From an uncultured Methanosarcinales archaeon (lineage in GTDB: Archaea; Nanobdellota; Nanobdellia; Woesearchaeales; BS150m-G63), in the NCBI GenBank assembly GCA_964630685.1, contig CAZVVW010000004.1, positions 1-64,000 on the forward strand: a stretch of DNA of 64,000 nt, read 5' to 3'. The translations under genes and the position numbers were made by a program. This document shows positions 3,663-15,166 of the stretch, piece after piece; positions within the stretch are counted from its first letter, which is position 1; the number at the start of each line of letters is the position of its first letter. The notes beneath the pieces were generated by a model. It did not search any database, was not told where the DNA came from, and was given only the letters and a program-made list of their open reading frames with translations.

Positions 3663-4562
3663 TTATAATTTTATTTTCATAAAATCTTCTGCACAAACAA
3701 CATCATCAAAAAAGTTTCTGGCATCTTCTTCTAATTCTTGGGTGTTTTTATATCTATTGCTGAAGTGCATTAAGATCAATTTTTTCACATTAGATTTATT
3801 TGCTATCAATGCTGCTTGTTTGGATGTTAAATGATAATATTTAGTTGCTTTGTTTTTTAATTTACTGCTATAAGAAGATTCACAAATAAGCAAGTCTGCA
3901 TTTTTTGCAATCTCATAACAATTATCACATAAAAGGGTGTCTGAAATAATACCTATTTTTTTACCTTCCACTAAATAAGTGAATTTATCAGGGTCTATTT
4001 TTTTGTTTTTCCATTTAATTTCTTTTCCTTCTTGTAATTTTCCCAATAAAGGGCCTTCAGGAATACCTAATTTTTTTATTTCTTGGACACTGATCCTTCT
4101 TTTATCTTTTTCAGTAAAAGAGTAGGCCAAAGAATATATCCCATGTTCTAAAGGAAGGGATTCTAATTTGAATTTTGAATTTTCAAAGAAAACACCTTCA
4201 CTAACTTCTTTTATTTCTATTTTTATTTTTTTATCAGAAGGAAACGCACTAAATATGTAATCTATATTCTTTTTTGTTCCTTTAGGGCCATATAATTTAA
4301 GCGTTTTAGAATAATCAGTGGTAGCAAGGCTTTGTAATACTCCTGGTAAACCAAATACGTGGTCTCCATGCCAATGGCTGATTAATATTTTAGTTATTTT
4401 AGTGAGACTAATTCCTGCAATTTTTAATTGTCTTTGGGTTCCTTCACCACAATCAATAAGAATTCCTTCAGAGCCATAGCTAAGAAACAGAGATTGTTGA
4501 TTCCTTTCTTTTGTTGGAGTCATACAGGAAGTACCCAAAAAAGTTAATATCATTTTAATCAT
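3663..4562 (-). CDS. rnz: Ribonuclease Z
   Basis: FLGTS, DCGEGTQRQ, SHWHGDH metallo-beta-lactamase motif, GP-rich exosite arm, HFSNRY. Confidence 0.95.
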   Translation of the reverse strand: MIKMILTFLGTSCMTPTKERNQQSLFLSYGSEGILIDCGEGTQRQLKIAGISLTKITKILISHWHGDHVFGLPGVLQSLATTDYSKTLKLYGPKGTKKNIDYIFSAFPSDKKIKIEIKEVSEGVFFENSKFKLESLPLEHGIYSLAYSFTEKDKRRISVQEIKKLGIPEGPLLGKLQEGKEIKWKNKKIDPDKFTYLVEGKKIGIISDTLLCDNCYEIAKNADLLICESSYSSKLKNKATKYYHLTSKQAALIANKSNVKKLILMHFSNRYKNTQELEEDARNFFDDVVCAEDFMKIKL

Positions 4563-4648
4563 CAGTTAATTATTTGAGATTATATATCTTTTGTTTTTGT
4601 TTCTTTAAAACCAAACATTTTTTAAACATATTTTATTTTATTAAATTT

Positions 4649-5185
4649 ATGGCTAAAAAAAACATAGTAAAGGCAATTTTTGCTGAAGAAAGGGTACTAA
4701 CAGAAAAAAGCGATTCTGCCAGAGTTTTTTATGATAAAAGTAGGTTTGGAAATATTTTGGAAAATGGAAAACTACAATTATCTCTTTTAGAGGCACTATA
4801 CCTCATAGAAAAAGAAAATTTAATTGTTTTAGATGGAAGAAACAAAGAAATAGATTTTGATAAATTCATCAAGAAATCCAAAAGAAAGGAACCTAATTTT
4901 TGGGTAAGATATTGTGTATTTAAAGACTTAAGGAATAGAGGTTACATTGTTAAAACTGCATTGAAGTTTGGGGCTGATTTTAGGGTTTATGATAGAGGCA
5001 TTAAGCCAGGAGAGGATCACGCTAGGTGGGTGGTTTATCCAGTCCACGAAGCTAGCGGGCTTACTTGGTACGATTTTGCAGCTAAAAATAGGGTCGCACA
5101 CTCAACAAAAAAGAGACTTATGATGGGTATTGTAGATGATGAAGGTGATGTAACTTATTATGAAATAAGGTGGATAAGGCCTTAA
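4649..5185 (+). CDS. endA: tRNA splicing endonuclease (single unit, likely alpha4 type)
   Basis: LSLLEALYL, DLRNRGYIVKTALKFGADFRVY, H and RVAHSTKK catalytic residues; ATG 4649 is the likely start. Confidence 0.95.
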   Translation: MAKKNIVKAIFAEERVLTEKSDSARVFYDKSRFGNILENGKLQLSLLEALYLIEKENLIVLDGRNKEIDFDKFIKKSKRKEPNFWVRYCVFKDLRNRGYIVKTALKFGADFRVYDRGIKPGEDHARWVVYPVHEASGLTWYDFAAKNRVAHSTKKRLMMGIVDDEGDVTYYEIRWIRP

Positions 5186-5267: not shown

Positions 5268-6215
5268 ATGGGGGGGGAAACCGAATTTATACTTAAAAAG
5301 AAGACTATTCTACGTTTAATTAGTGAAAAAGGGCCAGTAATCCCTGCTCAAGTGTATAAAGAAATAGGGGAAAATGTATTGATGGCTTCTGCACTTTTAT
5401 CTGAAATGGCATCAGAAAAATCAATTAAAATTTCTTCTATTAAAATTGGTGGCAGCCCACTTTATTATTTTGAAGGGCAAGAACACCTACTTGAAAAATA
5501 TATAGAAAAATTACATGAAAAAGAACAAAAATCAATAGAACTATTAAAACAAAAAAAAGTGCTGATGGATAGATTATTAGATCCAGTGGTTAGGGTTTCT
5601 TTAAGGCAATTAAAAGATTTTGCAAAGGCATTTGAAGTCAAAATAGGTGAAAATAAAGAGGTGTTTTGGAAGTGGCACTCTTTTCCTTCCAATGAACTTG
5701 AACCAAAAGTAAAAGAAATTTGGAGAAGCACCAAAACGCCCACAAAAACAATAAAAAACCTACAGCCACAACCATCACAATTTAACCAAGATAAAGATAA
5801 TAATAACAAACTAAAAACCCCACTCAAACAACAAATTAAAAAAATAACTAAAGTATCAGAAAAAACAAAAAAACTAACAAAAAAAGAGGTCAAAAAGAAA
5901 AAAGATGAATTTTTGTTGAGGGTACTACGAAATTTTGAGCAAGATAACTTGAAAGTTCTTAGCCAAGAGAATTTAAAGACCAATAAAGAATCTGAATTTG
6001 TTGTTAAAATACCTTCAGCAGTAGGGAATTTAATTTATTATTGTAAGGCAATAAATAAAAAGAAATGTAGTGATAAAGACTTGAGTTCTGCATTTGTTCA
6101 AGGACAATTAAAAAAACTACCAGTGTTGTTTTTGACAACAGGGGAATTAACTAAAAAAGCAAAAGAAATGCTAAAAAAAGAATTTAAATCAATGGTCATA
6201 AAAAGGGTGTCATAA
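5268..6215 (+). CDS. Hypothetical protein abutting fen (wHTH-like N-terminus, low-complexity linker, alpha/beta C-terminal domain)
   Basis: Long ORF whose TAA directly abuts the fen ATG; TATA box upstream. Confidence 0.75.
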   Translation: MGGETEFILKKKTILRLISEKGPVIPAQVYKEIGENVLMASALLSEMASEKSIKISSIKIGGSPLYYFEGQEHLLEKYIEKLHEKEQKSIELLKQKKVLMDRLLDPVVRVSLRQLKDFAKAFEVKIGENKEVFWKWHSFPSNELEPKVKEIWRSTKTPTKTIKNLQPQPSQFNQDKDNNNKLKTPLKQQIKKITKVSEKTKKLTKKEVKKKKDEFLLRVLRNFEQDNLKVLSQENLKTNKESEFVVKIPSAVGNLIYYCKAINKKKCSDKDLSSAFVQGQLKKLPVLFLTTGELTKKAKEMLKKEFKSMVIKRVS

Positions 6216-7250
6216 ATGGGAGTAGCACTAAAAGATTTAGTTGTAAGAAAAGACGTTTCTTTTGAAGAATTAAAAGATAAAATTCTTGTTGTTGATGCAT
6301 ATAATAATTTATACCAATATATTACCACAATTAGGCAAAGAGATGGATCTTTATTGACAGATTCAAAAGGAAATGTGACCTCACATCTTATTGGTTTGTT
6401 TTCTAGAACTACTAGTCTTATTCAAAAAGGATTAAAATTGGCCTTTGTTTTTGATGGTGAAGCCCCAGAAATGAAAAAAGAAGAAAGGGAAAGGAGAAAA
6501 GAAATAAAAATAGAAGCAGAAAAAAAATATCAAGAAGCAGAAAAAAAAGGAGATAAAGAAGAGATGAAAAAATATGCCCCTAGAACTTCTAAATTAACAC
6601 CTAAAATGGTTGAAGAAGCAAAGATGATGGTTAAGGCATTGGGTTTGCCAGTCATTCAAGCACCAAGTGAAGGGGAAGCACAGGCAGCAAAAATGGTCAA
6701 CAAAGGAGATGCGTTTGCAATAATTAGTCAAGATTATGATTCTTTATTATATGGTGCAGAAAGAGTGATCCAAAATTTGAGTGTTTCTACTAAAAGAAAA
6801 ATTAAAGGGTCTGTTGCGTATCAAACAATTAAACCCAGCATGATTGGTTTAAGTGAAAATTTAAACCACCTGGGGTTGGATCAAGATCAATTAATTGTTT
6901 TATCTATTTTAGTTGGAACAGATTATAATCTTGGAGGTGTAAAAGGTATTGGGCCTAAAACAGCACTTAAATTAGTTAAACAATATGGTTCTGATTTTGA
7001 TGATTTATTTAAAGAGTCAAAATGGGGAGACCATTTTAATTTTCCTTGGACAGACGTATATTATATTATAAAGAAAATGCCTTGGAAAAAAGATTATAAT
7101 TTGAATTGGGGTGAACCAAACGAACAAGAGCTTAGAAAATTATTGGTAGAAGAACACAATTTTTCAGAAGAAAGGTTTGAGAAAACAATTAAAAAATTAA
7201 TGAAAAATAAAGAATCGAGAAAACAAAAAGGTCTTGGAGATTTTTTTTAG
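6216..7250 (+). CDS. fen: Flap endonuclease 1
   Basis: MGV start, FVFDG, APSEGEAQAA, SQDYDSLLYGA, GTDYN, GIGPKTA and C-terminal PIP box QKGLGDFF. Confidence 0.97.
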   Translation: MGVALKDLVVRKDVSFEELKDKILVVDAYNNLYQYITTIRQRDGSLLTDSKGNVTSHLIGLFSRTTSLIQKGLKLAFVFDGEAPEMKKEERERRKEIKIEAEKKYQEAEKKGDKEEMKKYAPRTSKLTPKMVEEAKMMVKALGLPVIQAPSEGEAQAAKMVNKGDAFAIISQDYDSLLYGAERVIQNLSVSTKRKIKGSVAYQTIKPSMIGLSENLNHLGLDQDQLIVLSILVGTDYNLGGVKGIGPKTALKLVKQYGSDFDDLFKESKWGDHFNFPWTDVYYIIKKMPWKKDYNLNWGEPNEQELRKLLVEEHNFSEERFEKTIKKLMKNKESRKQKGLGDFF

Positions 7251-8425
7251 ATTTTTAAAACATATATTGGCGTGAGTTCTGTAATTATTTTAGCCATACC
7301 TAAATCTTCTGTTTTTTGAATGACTTCTCTTCCCCTATAAGTGAATTGGAGTTCTCTAACGTTTGAGATTATTTTTTTCCCTACCCCATTGGCCATTTCT
7401 ACCTCAAAAAATCTTTTATTGTTTGTTTCAAAAACATTATCTACAGTCAACGAATCTAAGAATTTATATCCCCCTCCATGTGGGAGGATGTTTGCATTTT
7501 TTAGTCTATTATAAACACCCATTTTTTTTGCTCTTTTCGTAAACCCCAGAGATTCTATTTGGTCTTTTGTGAAATTTTTGTTTCCGCGTACTAAATAAGA
7601 AGGGATATCTGCCCTAATAGATACTGGAAAAATTTGTTTTTTATTTTTTATTGGTTGGCAACCTAAAACTATTTCGTTGGGATTTAAGAGTCCTTGGTGG
7701 CAAATATTGGAAATAATTTTACCATTAAATAATGTGTTGAATGCTATTTCTCTTCTTTTATTTGCAAATTCTTCTGCGTATTTGTAAAATTTAAAATATT
7801 TTTTTAGTTCTTGTCCTTGAAGTGTATGTAAGGGCCCCCAAGGGGTTTTTATTCTGTTGCTCATTTCTAATAATTTTTTGCTATGGTTCCAATAAAGACC
7901 AAAACCCACATCACTATCCTCTTTTAATTCTGGACAACCAGCATGCATTATTGCAGCATATTTTGGAAAATTAGTTGAGTGATTATGTACTTCAAAAATA
8001 TCTATGAAATGGTTACCTTTATAAAAATCCCATTTTATTTTTGTGCCTTTTATTTCAATATTGCTTTTTTGTAATTCCTTTATTTTATTTATTAGTTCTT
8101 TTGGTTTAGGTACCTTATCTATGGATCCTACAAGCATACCGCAAGCATTAGGCAAAGAATCTAAGATTGTTAAGTTTTCTTTTCCCCCTCCCCAACTCAA
8201 TTTCCCTCCATAAGAAATACCAGATTCCCATCTTCCAATATTTCTTGTTACTGTTTCATCGGGAGTTGTGATAAAGGTGGCATTGGGTTCCATACCTAGG
8301 CCTTCTTGGACATAATGTATCTTGGCTAAGCCATACTTCATATTTTCCTGACTTAAGCGAGATGCAGCATCATTTATTCCTGTTGAGAAAATATGTTTTT
8401 TTGCTCTTTCTAAATTTATTTTCAT
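7247..8425 (-). CDS. Highly divergent RtcB-superfamily protein (RNA ligase / guanylyltransferase-like)
   Basis: Ordered motifs TPD, NACGM, GNHFIDI, MHAG, CHQG, PHGGG, TYRG and C-terminal PIYVLK match RtcB MPD, DIxCG, GNHF, HSG, HN, HGAG, AYK and P...K; start 8425 overlaps the upstream stop (ATGA). Confidence 0.7.
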   Translation of the reverse strand: MKINLERAKKHIFSTGINDAASRLSQENMKYGLAKIHYVQEGLGMEPNATFITTPDETVTRNIGRWESGISYGGKLSWGGGKENLTILDSLPNACGMLVGSIDKVPKPKELINKIKELQKSNIEIKGTKIKWDFYKGNHFIDIFEVHNHSTNFPKYAAIMHAGCPELKEDSDVGFGLYWNHSKKLLEMSNRIKTPWGPLHTLQGQELKKYFKFYKYAEEFANKRREIAFNTLFNGKIISNICHQGLLNPNEIVLGCQPIKNKKQIFPVSIRADIPSYLVRGNKNFTKDQIESLGFTKRAKKMGVYNRLKNANILPHGGGYKFLDSLTVDNVFETNNKRFFEVEMANGVGKKIISNVRELQFTYRGREVIQKTEDLGMAKIITELTPIYVLKI

Positions 8426-9531
8426 TTTTTTATTAAATTTACAATTTTTAGTTTTTTTGCATAAGTAAAAACATAATTTAATACCATAAATAATCCAATA
8501 CCAATTACTACCGACATCACAGTCCAAAACAAGAGGTCTTTAGTACTGAAAGAAATAATTTCTCCAACAGCCCCATTATCAGTCATCTTTAATATTATTT
8601 TTGCGCCAGGCATAGCCCCCAAACCCACAATTGTAGCAATAGTTCCAATTGCAAAAATAACTTGAAGAATATTCATTTCTTTTTGCTCATTTTCATTATA
8701 AATAAAGCCTATCAAATCTAAGGTAGAACTTATGTATTCTTTAGTCATATTAAACTGGTCCTTTATATAATTATTTAACCCAACCATTTCTTTGAAATCA
8801 TTGAGTTTTAAATCTTCAAGAACATTTAAAATATTACATTCATCCAACCGTTCGTTTAAGAAATCATCTAATTGGTTGATTTTTTGAAGGGTAGAAATAA
8901 TCAATCTTTTTTTCTCTAACAATTCATCTATTATCAAAGGCAGATCCTTGTATGTTAATTTTTTTTGCTTTCTAAGTTTTTTAACTTCTTGCTCTATTTT
9001 TTTATTATGAACTAAAAGGATTTTTGTTAATTTTTGATAATCTGCTAAAATTATTTGATTTTCAACTAACTCATTTAATTTAGATTTATTTAATTTTATC
9101 TTACTATAAATTGCTAAACCCCCCCCATAATCTTTTGTTAAATATTTTCCTTTAAAAGTATAATCATGAGACCTACCCAATTTTTTATATATCTTTTTAA
9201 TGGGCCCTTGGGGATTTGTGATTATGATGGTTGGTTTTTTTTCATATACTGCATTTTTAAAAAAAGAAGATGCCTCACTATTTGAACTTAATTTGGAAAT
9301 AACATTCTTTTTTAACCAAGAATATAATTCATTTATTTTATTTAAATCTTCTTTGGTTTTTATATATATTAAACCATCCTGAGCAATTTTTATTGTGGTT
9401 TTGGAATCTTTTTTTATTAAGATATAATCAAAATCAGCCCTAGTATATTCAAATTTTTGTTTTAATTTATGTTTTAAATCCAATAAATGTATCTTTGTCA
9501 AATAAACATATGTTCCTATTATCAATTCCAT
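8422..9531 (-). CDS. CorA-like architecture membrane protein (soluble N-domain, long helices, two C-terminal TM segments)
   Basis: Helical stalk ending EQKEMNILQVIFAIGTIATIVGLGAMP, then a second TM helix and a basic tail; no canonical GMN. Confidence 0.55.
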   Translation of the reverse strand: MELIIGTYVYLTKIHLLDLKHKLKQKFEYTRADFDYILIKKDSKTTIKIAQDGLIYIKTKEDLNKINELYSWLKKNVISKLSSNSEASSFFKNAVYEKKPTIIITNPQGPIKKIYKKLGRSHDYTFKGKYLTKDYGGGLAIYSKIKLNKSKLNELVENQIILADYQKLTKILLVHNKKIEQEVKKLRKQKKLTYKDLPLIIDELLEKKRLIISTLQKINQLDDFLNERLDECNILNVLEDLKLNDFKEMVGLNNYIKDQFNMTKEYISSTLDLIGFIYNENEQKEMNILQVIFAIGTIATIVGLGAMPGAKIILKMTDNGAVGEIISFSTKDLLFWTVMSVVIGIGLFMVLNYVFTYAKKLKIVNLIKK

Positions 9532-9532
9532 T

Positions 9533-10183
9533 TTAATTTTCTAGAATCATTTTGTAAGATTCTATTTTTCTTAAGTCCTTTGTTCGTGATTTTAAGTGGG
9601 TTTTTAAGTTGTGAACTATCTTCAGCGTTTCTTTATGAAGCTTTTTCCCCTGAATTCTACTTTCTTTGTAGAATAATTTGTCATAATCTTTTAATCTTTT
9701 ATTGATTCGATCTTCTATGATTTCTTCCATAGTCCCTTTTTTCCCCATTATACCTCTAATCATACCCATAAAACCTAGGCGCTCTAATGCATCTGCATCA
9801 AATACCACTTTTTCTTCTGGACTTGAAGGTTTAATCATAGAGGTAGGGGTGTGTTTTACAACTATCTTGGTAATTTTTCTAATTGTTTTAGTGTGATCTA
9901 TTAAAGATTCAAGAAATTCTTCTGCTCTCGAGCCGCCATCTATTCCATGAAATTCGCCAGTTGTTGCATTTATCCTGCCTATATCGTGCATTAATGCTCC
10001 GCAAATTAATATAAAAGGATCTATATCTTCTTTTATTTTCCTTCCAATTTCTATAGAATGTTTACAAACTTCTAAAACGTGAGAATAATCATGGCCTTCT
10101 GCTTTATGGTGTTTTTTTTCAATAAAACAAATAATTTTTTCAATTATCTTTTTTTCTTTATTAGTTAGTTTTCGTTTAAACAC
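9533..10183 (-). CDS. HD-domain metal-dependent phosphohydrolase
   Basis: GHDYSHV, LMHDIGR, H, KH and VFDADALERLG motifs; SD GAGGTGA precedes GTG at 10183. Confidence 0.9.
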   Translation of the reverse strand: MFKRKLTNKEKKIIEKIICFIEKKHHKAEGHDYSHVLEVCKHSIEIGRKIKEDIDPFILICGALMHDIGRINATTGEFHGIDGGSRAEEFLESLIDHTKTIRKITKIVVKHTPTSMIKPSSPEEKVVFDADALERLGFMGMIRGIMGKKGTMEEIIEDRINKRLKDYDKLFYKESRIQGKKLHKETLKIVHNLKTHLKSRTKDLRKIESYKMILEN

Positions 10184-10296
10184 CAAAATCACCTCTTTTA
10201 AAGTTTGATTGATTAGAGTATATATAAATTTTTTTAAATTTAAGCGAATTTATTTTTTTCAATAAATTTAAATAAGATAATTGAATTGGGGTTATC

Positions 10297-11163
10297 ATGG
10301 AATGGTATTTTTTTGGTTTAATGGCAGCAATCTTTTTTTCTGCCAGAATGTTAGTAGAAAAAAAGACATTAATTAAAGAACACGCATTAGAAATGTCTAC
10401 GGTTTTGTCCATCTTCATTTTCATTTTATTTTTTGTATTTATTGGGAAGGTCGATTTTTCAATCTCTTTTGATATTGTGATTTTAATTTTTTTTATTGCC
10501 ATATTGTGTACGTTTGGTTTTTGGTTTTTAGCAAAAGGAATAAGACATATGCAAGTGTCTGTAACTTCTCCATTACTTAATTTTAGTCCTGCTTTTGTGG
10601 CAATACTCGCAGTGGTTTTTTTAGGAGAAAAATTGAGCTATCTTCAACTTGGAGGTATTTCTTTACTTGTTTTTGGTTCTTATTTTTTGGAAGTAGAACA
10701 CCCATTAAAAAATCCATTCAAACCATTTATTCATTTATTTAAATCTAAATATACTCAATATTTGTTTTTGGCAATGATATTGTATTCTTTTGTTTCTATT
10801 TTAGATAAATTTATTCTTGGAAAAATAGACCAATTTACCTACCTTTTTATTTCCCAATTTTTTGTAATGATCAATTTTATTTTTTTAATTAATTTTCTTC
10901 ATGATGGTTTTAAAGGAATTGGGCACGGAATCAAAAAAGCCGGTAAGTGGATATTTTTGTTGGCAATGATTTTTATCGCACAAAGAATTTTTTATATGAC
11001 TTCTGTAACGATGATACAAGTAAGTTTGGCGTATCCCCTTTATAGGGTAGGCACACTTTTTTCTACTATAATAGGGGGCAAGTTATTTCATGATGGACAC
11101 GCAATTCATAGAATTATTACTTGTTTAATTATGATTATTGGTGCTGCATTGGTTGTGATTTGA
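10297..11163 (+). CDS. EamA/DMT-family transporter
   Basis: About 10 TM segments in two repeats; SPAFVAILAVVFLGEKL signature. Confidence 0.85.
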   Translation: MEWYFFGLMAAIFFSARMLVEKKTLIKEHALEMSTVLSIFIFILFFVFIGKVDFSISFDIVILIFFIAILCTFGFWFLAKGIRHMQVSVTSPLLNFSPAFVAILAVVFLGEKLSYLQLGGISLLVFGSYFLEVEHPLKNPFKPFIHLFKSKYTQYLFLAMILYSFVSILDKFILGKIDQFTYLFISQFFVMINFIFLINFLHDGFKGIGHGIKKAGKWIFLLAMIFIAQRIFYMTSVTMIQVSLAYPLYRVGTLFSTIIGGKLFHDGHAIHRIITCLIMIIGAALVVI

Positions 11164-11167
11164 GACT

Positions 11168-11989
11168 ATGAAAGAAAGAAAAATAAGGGGGCTAACCAAA
11201 AAAGAAAACCTATTAGTTCCAAGATCTTTTGATGTTGTTGGAGATATTCTTATTTTTGCTGAATTTCCTGAAGAGTTGAAGAAAAAAGAAAATTTAGTTG
11301 GTGAATGGTTTATTGAACAAAATAAACACATTAAAGTTGTTTTAAAAAAAGTAAAAAAATATTCAGGAAAATATAGGACTCCAGTTCTAAGGGTTGTTGC
11401 AGGAGAAAGAAGGAAAAAGACAAGATATATTGAACATGGATGTAGGTTTGATTTGAATGTAGAGTCGACTTATTTTTCTCCTAGATTAAGCACAGAAAGA
11501 AAAAGAATATATCAACAGATAAAAAAAGGAGAAAGTGTTTTGGTTATGTTTTCAGGTATTGCGCCATACCCTATAGTGATAAGCAGAAACACTTGCGCTA
11601 AAGAAATTTATGGTATTGAGATAAATCTATTTGCACATAAATTTGCTGAAGAAAACATTTTATTAAATAAGATTAAAAATGTTAAATTGTATAATGGGGA
11701 TGTTGATGTTATTTTACCAAATATAAAAAAGAAATTTGATAGAATTCTTATGCCCTTGCCAAAGGGAGCAGAAGCATTTTTAAGTGTTGCTTTGAGCAAA
11801 ATCAAAAAGAAGGGAGTAATACATTTATATGACTTTTTAGATAAACAAGATATTCCTGATTTGGCTATAGGGAAAATTAAAAATGCTTGCGAAAAAAACA
11901 ATAAGAAATTTAAGATTTTGGAAGTTGTTAAATGTGGGCAATACTCTCCAGGAAAGTACAGAATTTGCGTAGATTTTAGAATACTTTAA
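11168..11989 (+). CDS. tRNA G37 methyltransferase (Trm5/Tyw2 family)
   Basis: FDVVGDI, YFSPRLSTER, MFSGIAPY SAM-binding motif, FDRILMPLP. Confidence 0.85.
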   Translation: MKERKIRGLTKKENLLVPRSFDVVGDILIFAEFPEELKKKENLVGEWFIEQNKHIKVVLKKVKKYSGKYRTPVLRVVAGERRKKTRYIEHGCRFDLNVESTYFSPRLSTERKRIYQQIKKGESVLVMFSGIAPYPIVISRNTCAKEIYGIEINLFAHKFAEENILLNKIKNVKLYNGDVDVILPNIKKKFDRILMPLPKGAEAFLSVALSKIKKKGVIHLYDFLDKQDIPDLAIGKIKNACEKNNKKFKILEVVKCGQYSPGKYRICVDFRIL

Positions 11990-13423: not shown

Positions 13424-15166
13424 TTAAATCGCAAATTTACCCTTTTTTAGAATCCAAAATTCTTGTTTGCCTTTTACCCCATATATATCCATTTTTTGTT
13501 TTTTTGCGTTGATTACAATGTCATAATGGTATTCAGTTGTTCTATCTGGGTCAAATCCAGACCCCAAAGCAATGTGAATCATATTTGCTATTTTTTCGTT
13601 GACTATAAGGTAATCACATAATTCTGCTTCTGGATTTGTGTTTATTGCAAATTCTCCTAATTTATTGAAGTTTTTCTTTTTTAGATTGATAAGCGATTGG
13701 GGGAGAGATTTGTGTTTTTCTTTTTCAAGAAGCGCCCTCCAAGCATTCCTTTTTTCTTGATTGAGTTTTCGAATTATCTTTTTTGGTCCGCTGATGATTT
13801 TATATCCTTTTTTATCTGCTTTTACCACTAAAGGAATTTTTTCACTCAACATGTAACTTTGATCTATGCTAATTACAACGTCCCCATAAAAAGTTCCTTT
13901 AATATACTCAGGTGTCAGAAATGCTTCTCCGCCAGGAATGTTGGCCATGTTACCCACCTTCATACCTGTTTTTTTGTAGTATGTTTTGTTGATTTTATTT
14001 CTTGTTTCAGTTCCACTTAATTTTGCTTCTCTTTTGATGTTTTTCCCCTTTAAAAATACTTCAAAATTAGATTTTTTGGATTTTACAATTATTTTATCTG
14101 CTTTTTTCATTACATCTGCAATTGATTTATTCCTTTTTTGCATATCAAACCAATTTATTTTACTTGTTTTGATGAAAATATCTATCGGAAGAGTTTCTGT
14201 GAAACATACCCTGCTTTGAGGGTCTCTTGATTCTTCTTTTGATTGTGGATACCATTCAAATTTATAGATAATCCCACCAGGACTAGGCCACCTTGTTTTT
14301 TTATTTGGTGTTGGATAACCTATTGTTTCTCCAAAAAGGTGCTTTCCCCCATAACCCTTTCCATGAATAAAGAAATTAATATCTGAAGGTTTTAAACAAT
14401 TTAATTTTAATAATTTTGATAATTTTTTGTATTTTTGAAATACTGGCTCATCTATGTTTTTTTCTAATTCACAACCAAGCAAAGTTGTTTTTAAGTCCGA
14501 TACCCTATTTGCAGGTTTCAAGATGGATGTTTTTGAGCTAGATGCACCAAAAGAAACTTTATTTTTTAAAGAATCTTTCATTGCCCTTGCGATCGAAAAA
14601 GAATCTAAGTAATCTTCTAATGGGAGTTCTAATTGCTTAGGTATTAATTCAAAACCAACACCTACAGATTCCCACCATTTTACATTGCATGCTTGAGACC
14701 AAATCACTCTTGAGGTTTCTAAAAGATCTTTTTGCCTATATGGTTTAAACCATTTTGTTTTGAATTTAATACATAATTTTTCTTGGTTGAAACACTCATT
14801 GGTGTTTAGAATTAAATCTGGTTTTTTGAATATTTTTTTAAATTTACCTTTTGTTTTCTTTTCAACTTCGTTGATGAATTCTGAAAGGGCAATCGTTTTT
14901 TTATTTTCAATTTTTTGAGTTAACTGATTATAGGTTTCCCATACTCGCGCTAATGCTTTATATGCGTGATTGCCTTTTTTATTTATTCCCACCACATTTA
15001 ATTCTACATCTAGATTGTGGAGAGCTTTAGATAATGGTGCTATAGAGTAATATGCTTGTTTGTTGTTTTTTTCTAATAAAATTAGAATCGCTTTCTTTTT
15101 ATATTTTGAAAAAGATGTTTGGTAATATTTTACTGCACTGTCAAATTCTTTTTTGTTGTATTTCAT
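13424..15166 (-). CDS. Peptidase M29-like (aminopeptidase T/II) protein with long N-terminal region
   Basis: C-terminal NIPGGEAF, LGEFAINTN, NEKIANMIHIALG and HYD motifs. Confidence 0.7.
   Translation of the reverse strand: MKYNKKEFDSAVKYYQTSFSKYKKKAILILLEKNNKQAYYSIAPLSKALHNLDVELNVVGINKKGNHAYKALARVWETYNQLTQKIENKKTIALSEFINEVEKKTKGKFKKIFKKPDLILNTNECFNQEKLCIKFKTKWFKPYRQKDLLETSRVIWSQACNVKWWESVGVGFELIPKQLELPLEDYLDSFSIARAMKDSLKNKVSFGASSSKTSILKPANRVSDLKTTLLGCELEKNIDEPVFQKYKKLSKLLKLNCLKPSDINFFIHGKGYGGKHLFGETIGYPTPNKKTRWPSPGGIIYKFEWYPQSKEESRDPQSRVCFTETLPIDIFIKTSKINWFDMQKRNKSIADVMKKADKIIVKSKKSNFEVFLKGKNIKREAKLSGTETRNKINKTYYKKTGMKVGNMANIPGGEAFLTPEYIKGTFYGDVVISIDQSYMLSEKIPLVVKADKKGYKIISGPKKIIRKLNQEKRNAWRALLEKEKHKSLPQSLINLKKKNFNKLGEFAINTNPEAELCDYLIVNEKIANMIHIALGSGFDPDRTTEYHYDIVINAKKQKMDIYGVKGKQEFWILKKGKFAI

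Follow-up and report, generated by a model that had tools for sequence, protein, structure and literature searches.

A conserved gene pair encoding an HD phosphohydrolase and a predicted RtcB-fold protein, separated by a lineage-specific insertion in a Woesearchaeota-like DPANN archaeon

Three tightly packed open reading frames (ORFs) span positions 7247–10183 on the minus strand of the DNA analysed here, a stretch of 64 000 nucleotides (the window; positions 1–64 000 of contig CAZVVW010000004.1, assembly GCA_964630685.1). The first gene of this putative operon (9533–10183) encodes an HD phosphohydrolase of 216 residues, recognized by its match to PF01966; the second (8422–9531) a protein of 369 residues with two transmembrane (TM) helices and a predicted CorA fold (the 2TM protein), recognized from its predicted model and Foldseek matches; and the third (7247–8425) a compact, divergent member of the RtcB superfamily (the RtcB-like protein, 392 residues from the ATG at 8425), recognized by the RtcB fold of its predicted model. 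An earlier, sequence-only reading of this locus had assigned the three products in this way, which the matches described below bear out, and had proposed that they form a new system in which writer, eraser and membrane effector are encoded together. The question that the locus raises is whether the three coupled genes belong together functionally. We find that the HD and RtcB-like genes are a conserved pair, linked or co-inherited across archaea and bacteria, and that the 2TM gene is a lineage-specific insertion exactly at the junction between them.

The HD/RtcB-like pair and the gene inserted into it

Loci encoding the RtcB-like protein were taken from the GTDB species genomes; most of the loci come from metagenome bins, and the taxon labels are those of the submitters. 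The 80 loci are distributed over archaea [DPANN, Bathyarchaeia, Asgard, including the cultured Promethearchaeum syntrophicum MK-D1 (L075), and Methanocellales] and bacteria (Planctomycetota, Spirochaetota, Desulfobacterota, Chloroflexota, Clostridia, Aerophobetes and others). An HD homolog directly adjoins the RtcB-like gene in 39 of these loci (34 above 150 bits and five at 36–50 bits), and the adjacent HD genes that were clustered all lie on the strand of the RtcB-like gene (38 of 38), either upstream or downstream of it. Full co-occurrence was examined in 401 genomes of the window's order and in five cases in which the genes are unlinked. The RtcB-like gene is present in 14 of the 401 genomes and an HD ortholog (at least 281 bits) in 11, all of which are among the 14 carriers and have the ortholog adjacent to the RtcB-like gene on one contig. 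The remaining HD matches in the 401 genomes, including those in every genome that lacks the RtcB-like gene, score at most 57 bits. Four of the five unlinked cases (three Planctomycetota-type genomes and P. syntrophicum MK-D1) have an HD ortholog of about 300 bits elsewhere in the genome. The pair is very probably a functional module, with the 2TM gene outside its core.

The nearest relative of the window locus, L002, shares 89% identity in the RtcB-like protein and 92% in the HD protein and has the same synteny (PAN, Trm5, EamA, HD and RtcB-like genes, with FEN1 convergent). In the window, the stop codon of the HD gene (TAA, 9535–9533) is separated by a single base (9532) from the ATG of the 2TM gene at 9531, giving the junction TAAaATG (9531–9535), and the stop codon of the 2TM gene overlaps the start of the RtcB-like gene in an ATGA at 8422–8425. 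The same TAAaATG follows the HD gene of L002, a locus without the 2TM gene. The ATG of this junction is there the start codon of the RtcB-like gene itself; in the window it opens the 2TM gene instead, and a new ATGA start precedes ...LERAKKHIFSTG of the RtcB-like gene. In the family tree the two loci are sisters, with a support of 99, within a 26-row DPANN clade. An ancestral 2TM gene that was repeatedly lost was considered and rejected, as it requires many losses on this tree against one gain. The GC content of the insert (0.250, compared with 0.29–0.32 in its neighbours, with similar GC content at third codon positions) is too weak a signal to prove a foreign origin. Contigs from other public runs bridge both junctions with 0 mismatches, the RtcB-like/2TM junction in runs X3, X4, X5 and X6 (from two studies; X3 and X5 have identical record lengths and are perhaps a single data set) and the 2TM/HD junction in run X4; thus, the gene arrangement is real DNA and not an assembly artefact.

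A different gene occupies the same junction at two other loci. A YdjM-family membrane protein of 144 residues (PF04307, E 4.4e-9), unrelated to the 2TM protein, is encoded between the HD and RtcB-like genes at L004 (5552–5983) and by the matching gene at L005, which indicates that the junction tolerates insertions. Gaps of about 430 nucleotides between the HD and RtcB-like genes in genomes G265 and G132 may also hold a YdjM insert.

The distribution of the 2TM gene bears directly on the proposal of a three-gene nucleotide-signalling or defence system with a CorA-like membrane effector. Such a system would be in keeping with the tight gene coupling in the window's genome, with the existence of CorA-fold effectors in some type III CRISPR systems and with the second membrane-protein gene (YdjM) that L004 and L005 carry at this junction. 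However, no 2TM homolog is found at any of the 80 other RtcB-like loci, L002 included. Six of the 401 genomes carry the 2TM gene, only the window's own together with the RtcB-like gene; the other five have neither an HD nor an RtcB-like gene in flanks of about 1–8 kb, some of which end at contig ends. The RtcB-like and 2TM proteins had no match in PADLOC, where the only match was of the HD protein to a Cas10 HD domain (E 0.0061), or in PHROGs, and no Cas10/Csm1 (TIGR02578) was detected in the window's genome, which is 96.6% complete. No relatives were found in viral contigs (pattern and tblastn scans) or in PLSDB plasmids (tblastn). The sequence-only reading had itself named a failure of the three genes to co-occur in other genomes as the outcome that would speak against it, and the trio was indeed found nowhere else (0 of 80 loci and one of 401 genomes, that of the window). 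The reading of the three genes as a writer/eraser/membrane-effector set is therefore not supported, and we consider a three-gene system to be highly improbable. The part of it that survives is the HD/RtcB-like pair, without the 2TM protein as a third member.

The AlphaFold2 (AF2) model of the 2TM protein has a predicted local distance difference test score (pLDDT) of 83.9. Foldseek matched this model to CorA, Mrs2 and CmaX with E values of 4.9e-5 to 3.8e-3 (best probability 1.0), and the 15 matches at E ≤ 0.001 are all CorA or Mrs2, with TM-scores of 0.28–0.40. As judged from the model, the protein has a CorA fold, with an N-terminal α/β domain, long helices and two C-terminal TM helices (hydrophobic segments at about residues 286–310 and 331–359) as in the CorA/Mrs2 Mg2+ channels and the CorA effectors of type III CRISPR systems. 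It differs from CorA in having no Pfam match at the cut-off (none to PF01544 at E ≤ 1) and no NCBIfam match. The GMN motif of CorA stands at the end of TM1; this motif (searched as G[MVI]N) is present in none of 23 members of the 2TM family, in which LGAMPG is conserved instead. Unlike the type III CRISPR effectors, the 2TM protein comes from a genome without Cas10 and belongs to a small family (24 relatives, one from Patescibacteria and the rest DPANN-labelled or unlabelled). In one of these genomes (L088; G363:C70), the 2TM homolog lies beside what appear, by eye from the translations, to be molybdopterin biosynthesis genes and an aldehyde:ferredoxin oxidoreductase gene.

The inserted protein could alternatively have been recruited secondarily, in this lineage only, as a channel for divalent cations that is expressed together with two metal-dependent enzymes; it would then be of use to this organism without belonging to the module in general. 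Its gene is coupled in translation to those on either side, the genome (96.6% complete) contains no PF01544 CorA, and both RtcB (PMC9745838) and YpgQ (PMC8177086), a relative of the HD protein, need Mn. On the other hand, insertion within an operon can by itself yield coupling, the 2TM gene has varied surroundings in other DPANN genomes and the GMN motif is missing throughout the family (0 of 23), such that recruitment of this kind seems improbable.

The RtcB-like protein and its family

The RtcB-like protein of the window has no Pfam match (none to PF01139 at E ≤ 1) and no NCBIfam match, and a phmmer search of the PDB returned no matches. Its AF2 model (pLDDT 91.7) was compared with known structures using Foldseek, in which the top matches are all RtcB (E about 1e-8), as are all matches at E ≤ 1.4e-6, and using VIA, which gave Z scores of 19.9–22.8 to ten RtcB entries (r.m.s.d. 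of 3.1–3.5 Å for 298–314 residues, 14–17% identity) and a Z score of 5.3 to the next-best fold. On the evidence of the model, the protein has the RtcB fold.

The family comprises 846 clusters at E ≤ 1e-3 in a word-indexed search and 342 proteins at E ≤ 1e-3 in a profile search of 1.84 billion representatives, the latter of which revealed no bridge to canonical RtcB. The named copies among the 846 clusters are all annotated as hypothetical. Neither the family nor its pairing with the HD protein was found described in the family libraries or in the literature, in a search whose coverage left out most subscription journals. The family evolves slowly and has a patchy distribution. Members from the two domains share 44–62% identity over their full length, and the tree separates 33 bacterial from 48 archaeal rows by a short, well supported branch; two of the archaeal rows are bins that bear bacterial labels and look mis-binned. 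The RtcB-like genes of bins L029 and L039, labelled as bacteria (Deltaproteobacteria and Deferrimicrobium), are nested among those of Bathyarchaeota and Helarchaeota; this nesting and the near-identity of L029 to L035 suggest mis-binned contigs or recent transfer.

Residue roles in the active site are known for RtcB from Pyrococcus (PhoRtcB; PMC9745838). PhoRtcB binds two Mn ions, M1 through His234, His329 and Cys98 and M2 through Cys98, Asp95 and His203; the nucleophile His404 carries GMP, guanine is contacted by Glu206 and Lys480, and the phosphate is contacted by Asn202 and Asn330. The motifs of PhoRtcB (Cys98, Asn202-His203-Phe204-x-Glu206, His234, His329-Asn330, His404 and Lys480) have collinear counterparts in the RtcB-like protein (C95, N138-H139-F140-I141-D142, H161, H243-Q244, H316 and the penultimate K391). 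All 25 close members that were compared, and all 30 members of a set extending down to 23% identity, share C95, H139, H161, H243 and H316, whereas the candidate counterparts of the guanine contacts, D142 and K391, are at least 90% conserved in the core family and variable in distant branches. The family thus appears, from these motifs and the predicted fold, to keep the metal-ligand and histidine-nucleophile positions of Pyrococcus RtcB.

The RtcB-like protein shares its fold and the order of its motifs (Cys, NHF, three His and the penultimate Lys) with the RtcB 3'-phosphate/5'-OH RNA ligases (PF01139; for example, Pyrococcus horikoshii RtcB, 4dwq, and human RTCB, 7p3b), but is about 90 residues shorter, has 44 rather than 105 residues (PhoRtcB numbering) between the Cys and NHF motifs and is only 14–17% identical, with no significant sequence match. 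It has HQ in place of HN, HxGxPE in place of HCGSRGxGHQ and HGGGY in place of HGAGRxMSR. The Arg residues of the latter motif, R360 and R364, which follow the nucleophile, are invariant in five canonical RtcBs that were compared. Canonical RtcB has D-I-N-C-G and the RtcB-like family D89-x-x-P-N93-x-C95; in the wider family N93, D56 and D133 are nearly invariant, but D89 is not conserved. Canonical RtcBs encoded at RtcB-like loci end in ...KG.

Canonical RtcB is present alongside the RtcB-like protein in most of the carrier genomes examined. The sequence-only reading had raised the matter of a separate canonical rtcB, and the window's genome does encode one (545.6 bits), together with an archease, both on another contig. 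In a set of 50 carrier genomes, drawn from the 80 loci in a way that favoured longer ones, canonical RtcB is found in 46 and archease in 40 (six of the ten archease-free carriers are Planctomycetota-type). The RtcB-like protein, an extra copy in 46 of these 50 genomes, is therefore not the tRNA ligase. A role as a backup tRNA ligase was also rejected, because the family is patchily distributed (14 of 401 genomes) and accompanies canonical RtcB. The coexistence of the two proteins might equally be expected if the RtcB-like gene were a redundant or decaying tRNA-ligase paralog without a role of its own. The full-length identity across domains, the very short branch between the bacterial and archaeal clades, the invariant catalytic residues and the dedicated, co-inherited HD partner instead point to strong purifying selection on a distinct function, and we give the idea of a decaying paralog very little credence. 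Several of the canonical RtcB frames are unusually long, at 814–986 residues (L005:6999–9953, G404:C7, G420:C27, G438:C31 and G414:C111); their Pfam match is split (1–50/57 and from about 29–49 to 426) and they look intein-containing.

The HD partner and the possible function of the pair

The HD protein matches PF01966 with 46.7 bits (cut-off 22, E 4.7e-12). Its nearest relatives of known structure are stand-alone HD phosphohydrolases and related entries: Lin1889 (3b57, 8.3e-10), 2pq7, 3djb, YpgQ (5dqv, 5.4e-7) and YedJ (3gw7). It shares with YpgQ, YedJ and Lin1889 the extended metal motif H...HD...H...H...D (H31, H66, D67, H79, H111 and D129/D131), and all of 26 orthologs have H31, D32, H35, H66, D67, H79, H111, D129 and D131. 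It differs from them in forming its own ortholog group, which tracks the RtcB-like gene (at least 281 bits, compared with at most 57 bits for paralogs), and its score of 34.5 bits against the NCBIfam equivalog for YedJ (PRK10119) lies far below the cut-off of 286. A start codon at the GTG at 10183–10181 agrees with the orthologs, all of which begin with M-F-x-R; the ORF list has a further GTG upstream at 10192. Prediction of a complex of the RtcB-like and HD proteins (alignments A1 and A4), which was run without controls, gave a score of 0.00 and no verdict is drawn from it.

From the conserved positions and the predicted fold, we judge it about evenly balanced that the RtcB-like protein is an accessory GTP- and Mn-dependent enzyme that activates phosphate ends and works with its dedicated phosphohydrolase. 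The enzyme would use GTP and Mn to form a nucleoside monophosphate (NMP) adduct on His316, from which the NMP would be transferred to an end bearing a phosphate monoester. The likeliest target would be a nucleic-acid end with a 3'-phosphate or cyclic phosphate, in an accessory heal-and-seal or end-capping route, and the HD enzyme may prepare or clear either the end or the nucleotide adduct, for example through hydrolysis of a cyclic phosphate or of 3'-ppG or through NTP pyrophosphohydrolysis. Nucleic-acid 3'-phosphate or cyclic-phosphate ends are favoured because of the repair-flavoured neighbours of the RtcB-like gene, although the chance that the substrate is a nucleic-acid end falls, in our estimate, a little short of even. 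The neighbours that recur beyond lineage synteny in the 80 loci are archease (six loci), canonical RtcB (five), PolX (four), the TIGR00375 PHP protein (six), which we take to belong to the endonuclease Q family, and a CpdA/SpdA/YfcE-like metallophosphoesterase (six).

In that an enzyme of the RtcB fold has a small partner gene of its own, the pair resembles the RtcB–archease and RtcB2–PrfH repair modules, and archease and canonical RtcB genes flank it at several loci. Its partner is an HD hydrolase, in contrast to the archease and the release-factor homolog of those modules, and archease is missing from ten of the 50 carrier genomes.

Several observations weigh against an end-activating enzyme of this type. 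The residue equivalences given above rest on the order of motifs, the fold match and a non-significant hhalign alignment (E 0.084 against canonical RtcB), in which H161 and H316 are each shifted by one residue, rather than on a residue-level superposition. Only one of 25 family members matches PF01139 (E 9.3e-7), and the family profile finds RtcB in the PDB at E 0.48–0.51, behind chance matches to hydrogenases at 0.29. The motifs and alignment revealed no assignable counterpart in the family to Asp95, a ligand of M2. The Arg residues after the RtcB nucleophile, which act in RNA-end steps, are absent from the family, where the sequence is H316-G-G-G-Y320 with Y320 invariant; handling of the substrate is therefore probably unlike that of a tRNA exon end. 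In addition, 41 of the 80 loci, some of which are short contigs, have no adjacent HD gene, and the neighbours are heterogeneous, with many reflecting plain synteny (for example, pyruvate kinase in nine DPANN loci).

A further point of this kind concerns the substrate. Protein P0159 (743 residues, metagenomic) carries an APH-type phosphotransferase domain (PF01636, residues 57–268, E 3.2e-20) N-terminal to its RtcB-like domain (336–735), and YpgQ is characterized as an Mn-dependent (d)NTP pyrophosphohydrolase (PMC8177086). The fusion to a domain of the small-molecule kinase type and the kinship of the HD protein, taken with the lost Arg residues (HGGGY compared with HGAGRxMSR), keep a small-molecule substrate in consideration. 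The RtcB-like protein would then guanylylate a phosphomonoester that is not part of a polymer, for instance a nucleotide 3'-phosphate or some phosphorylated metabolite, to give an NMP-activated or phosphodiester product, and the HD enzyme would hydrolyse this product or the NTP, as in a writer/eraser pair without a membrane effector. The NTPase PRK13695, which is encoded near the RtcB-like gene in five of the 80 loci, all Planctomycetota-type, would fit such chemistry. However, P0159 is a single metagenomic protein, and its two domains might have been joined in gene calling; archease and canonical RtcB are immediate neighbours in five or six loci; PolX, the PHP protein and the cyclic-phosphodiesterase-like metallophosphoesterase adjoin at others; and no signalling receptor or effector is conserved near the RtcB-like gene. 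We view small-molecule chemistry as fairly unlikely. With similar reserve, we suggest that the pair may represent an unrecognized branch of RtcB chemistry that has lost the arginines binding the RNA end while keeping the binuclear metal centre and the His-NMP step. This branch may act on a DNA 3'-phosphate end or on a phosphorylated small molecule, yielding an NMP-activated compound, with the dedicated HD protein as the matching hydrolase, and the pair may have been passed around between anaerobes of sediments and the sea in both domains, Asgard archaea among them.

Some of the counts used here include unpublished genomes. Three (G132, G208 and G374) are among both the 14 RtcB-like carriers and the 11 HD carriers. 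Two more (L003 and L004; G402 and G403) provide two of the six archease loci, two of the five RtcB-adjacent loci, two of the five rows of alignment A2 and two of the 50 carrier genomes, and L004 is one of the two loci with the YdjM insertion. Row P0003 of alignment A1 derives from a contig whose length equals that of the L003 contig. The conclusions stand without these genomes.

Polyamine and hypusine genes (pyruvoyl arginine decarboxylase, agmatinase and deoxyhypusine synthase) were also observed near the RtcB-like gene in several unrelated lineages, at L075 (P. syntrophicum MK-D1), L030, L032, L033, L047, L057 and L064.

Surroundings of the locus and significance

The window has a GC content of about 30% and its host genome comprises 936 502 bases. 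Relatives of this genome were labelled Woesearchaeota or Nanoarchaeota by their submitters, and the organism is a Woesearchaeota-like DPANN archaeon with a genome of 0.94 Mb. The layout described in the sequence-only reading, with three coupled minus-strand genes at 7247–10183 joined by the one-base gap at 9532 and the ATGA overlap, holds in full. The Shine–Dalgarno-like sequence that it noted before the first gene is GAGGTGA (10189–10195, minus strand), 5 nucleotides before the HD GTG start and identical in L002. Further upstream, TTTATATA at 10228–10221 on the same strand is conserved in L002 and is a candidate archaeal TATA box that may serve as the promoter element of the operon. Family matches also confirm the flanking genes it had named: FEN1 (PF00867/PF00752; 6216–7250, plus strand) is convergent to the RtcB-like gene with a 4-nucleotide overlap, and the EamA gene (10297–11163, plus strand) is divergent from the HD gene.

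Genes for tRNA processing cluster around the locus (3663–5185 and 11168–11989 of the window). Family matches identify an RNase Z-like metallo-β-lactamase (3663–4562), a tRNA intron endonuclease (PF01974/PF02778; 4649–5185) and a TRM5/TYW2 methyltransferase (11168–11989). The same tRNA-gene synteny is present in L002, so that the proximity of these genes to the RtcB-like gene may be coincidental. Two further ORFs of the window, at 5268–6215 (315 residues) and 13424–15166 (580 residues), have no Pfam match at E ≤ 1e-5.

The locus also illustrates that tight translational coupling in one genome can stem from a recent insertion within an operon and need not mark a functional system. To our knowledge, RtcB is the only enzyme family that seals 3'-phosphate ends through a histidine–GMP intermediate. 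The very divergent, strongly conserved and still unnamed branch described here would widen the known range of RtcB chemistry. Together with its HD partner it would offer enzymologists of RNA and DNA repair a defined two-protein system, one that is present in the cultured Asgard archaeon P. syntrophicum MK-D1 and in many uncultured sediment lineages.

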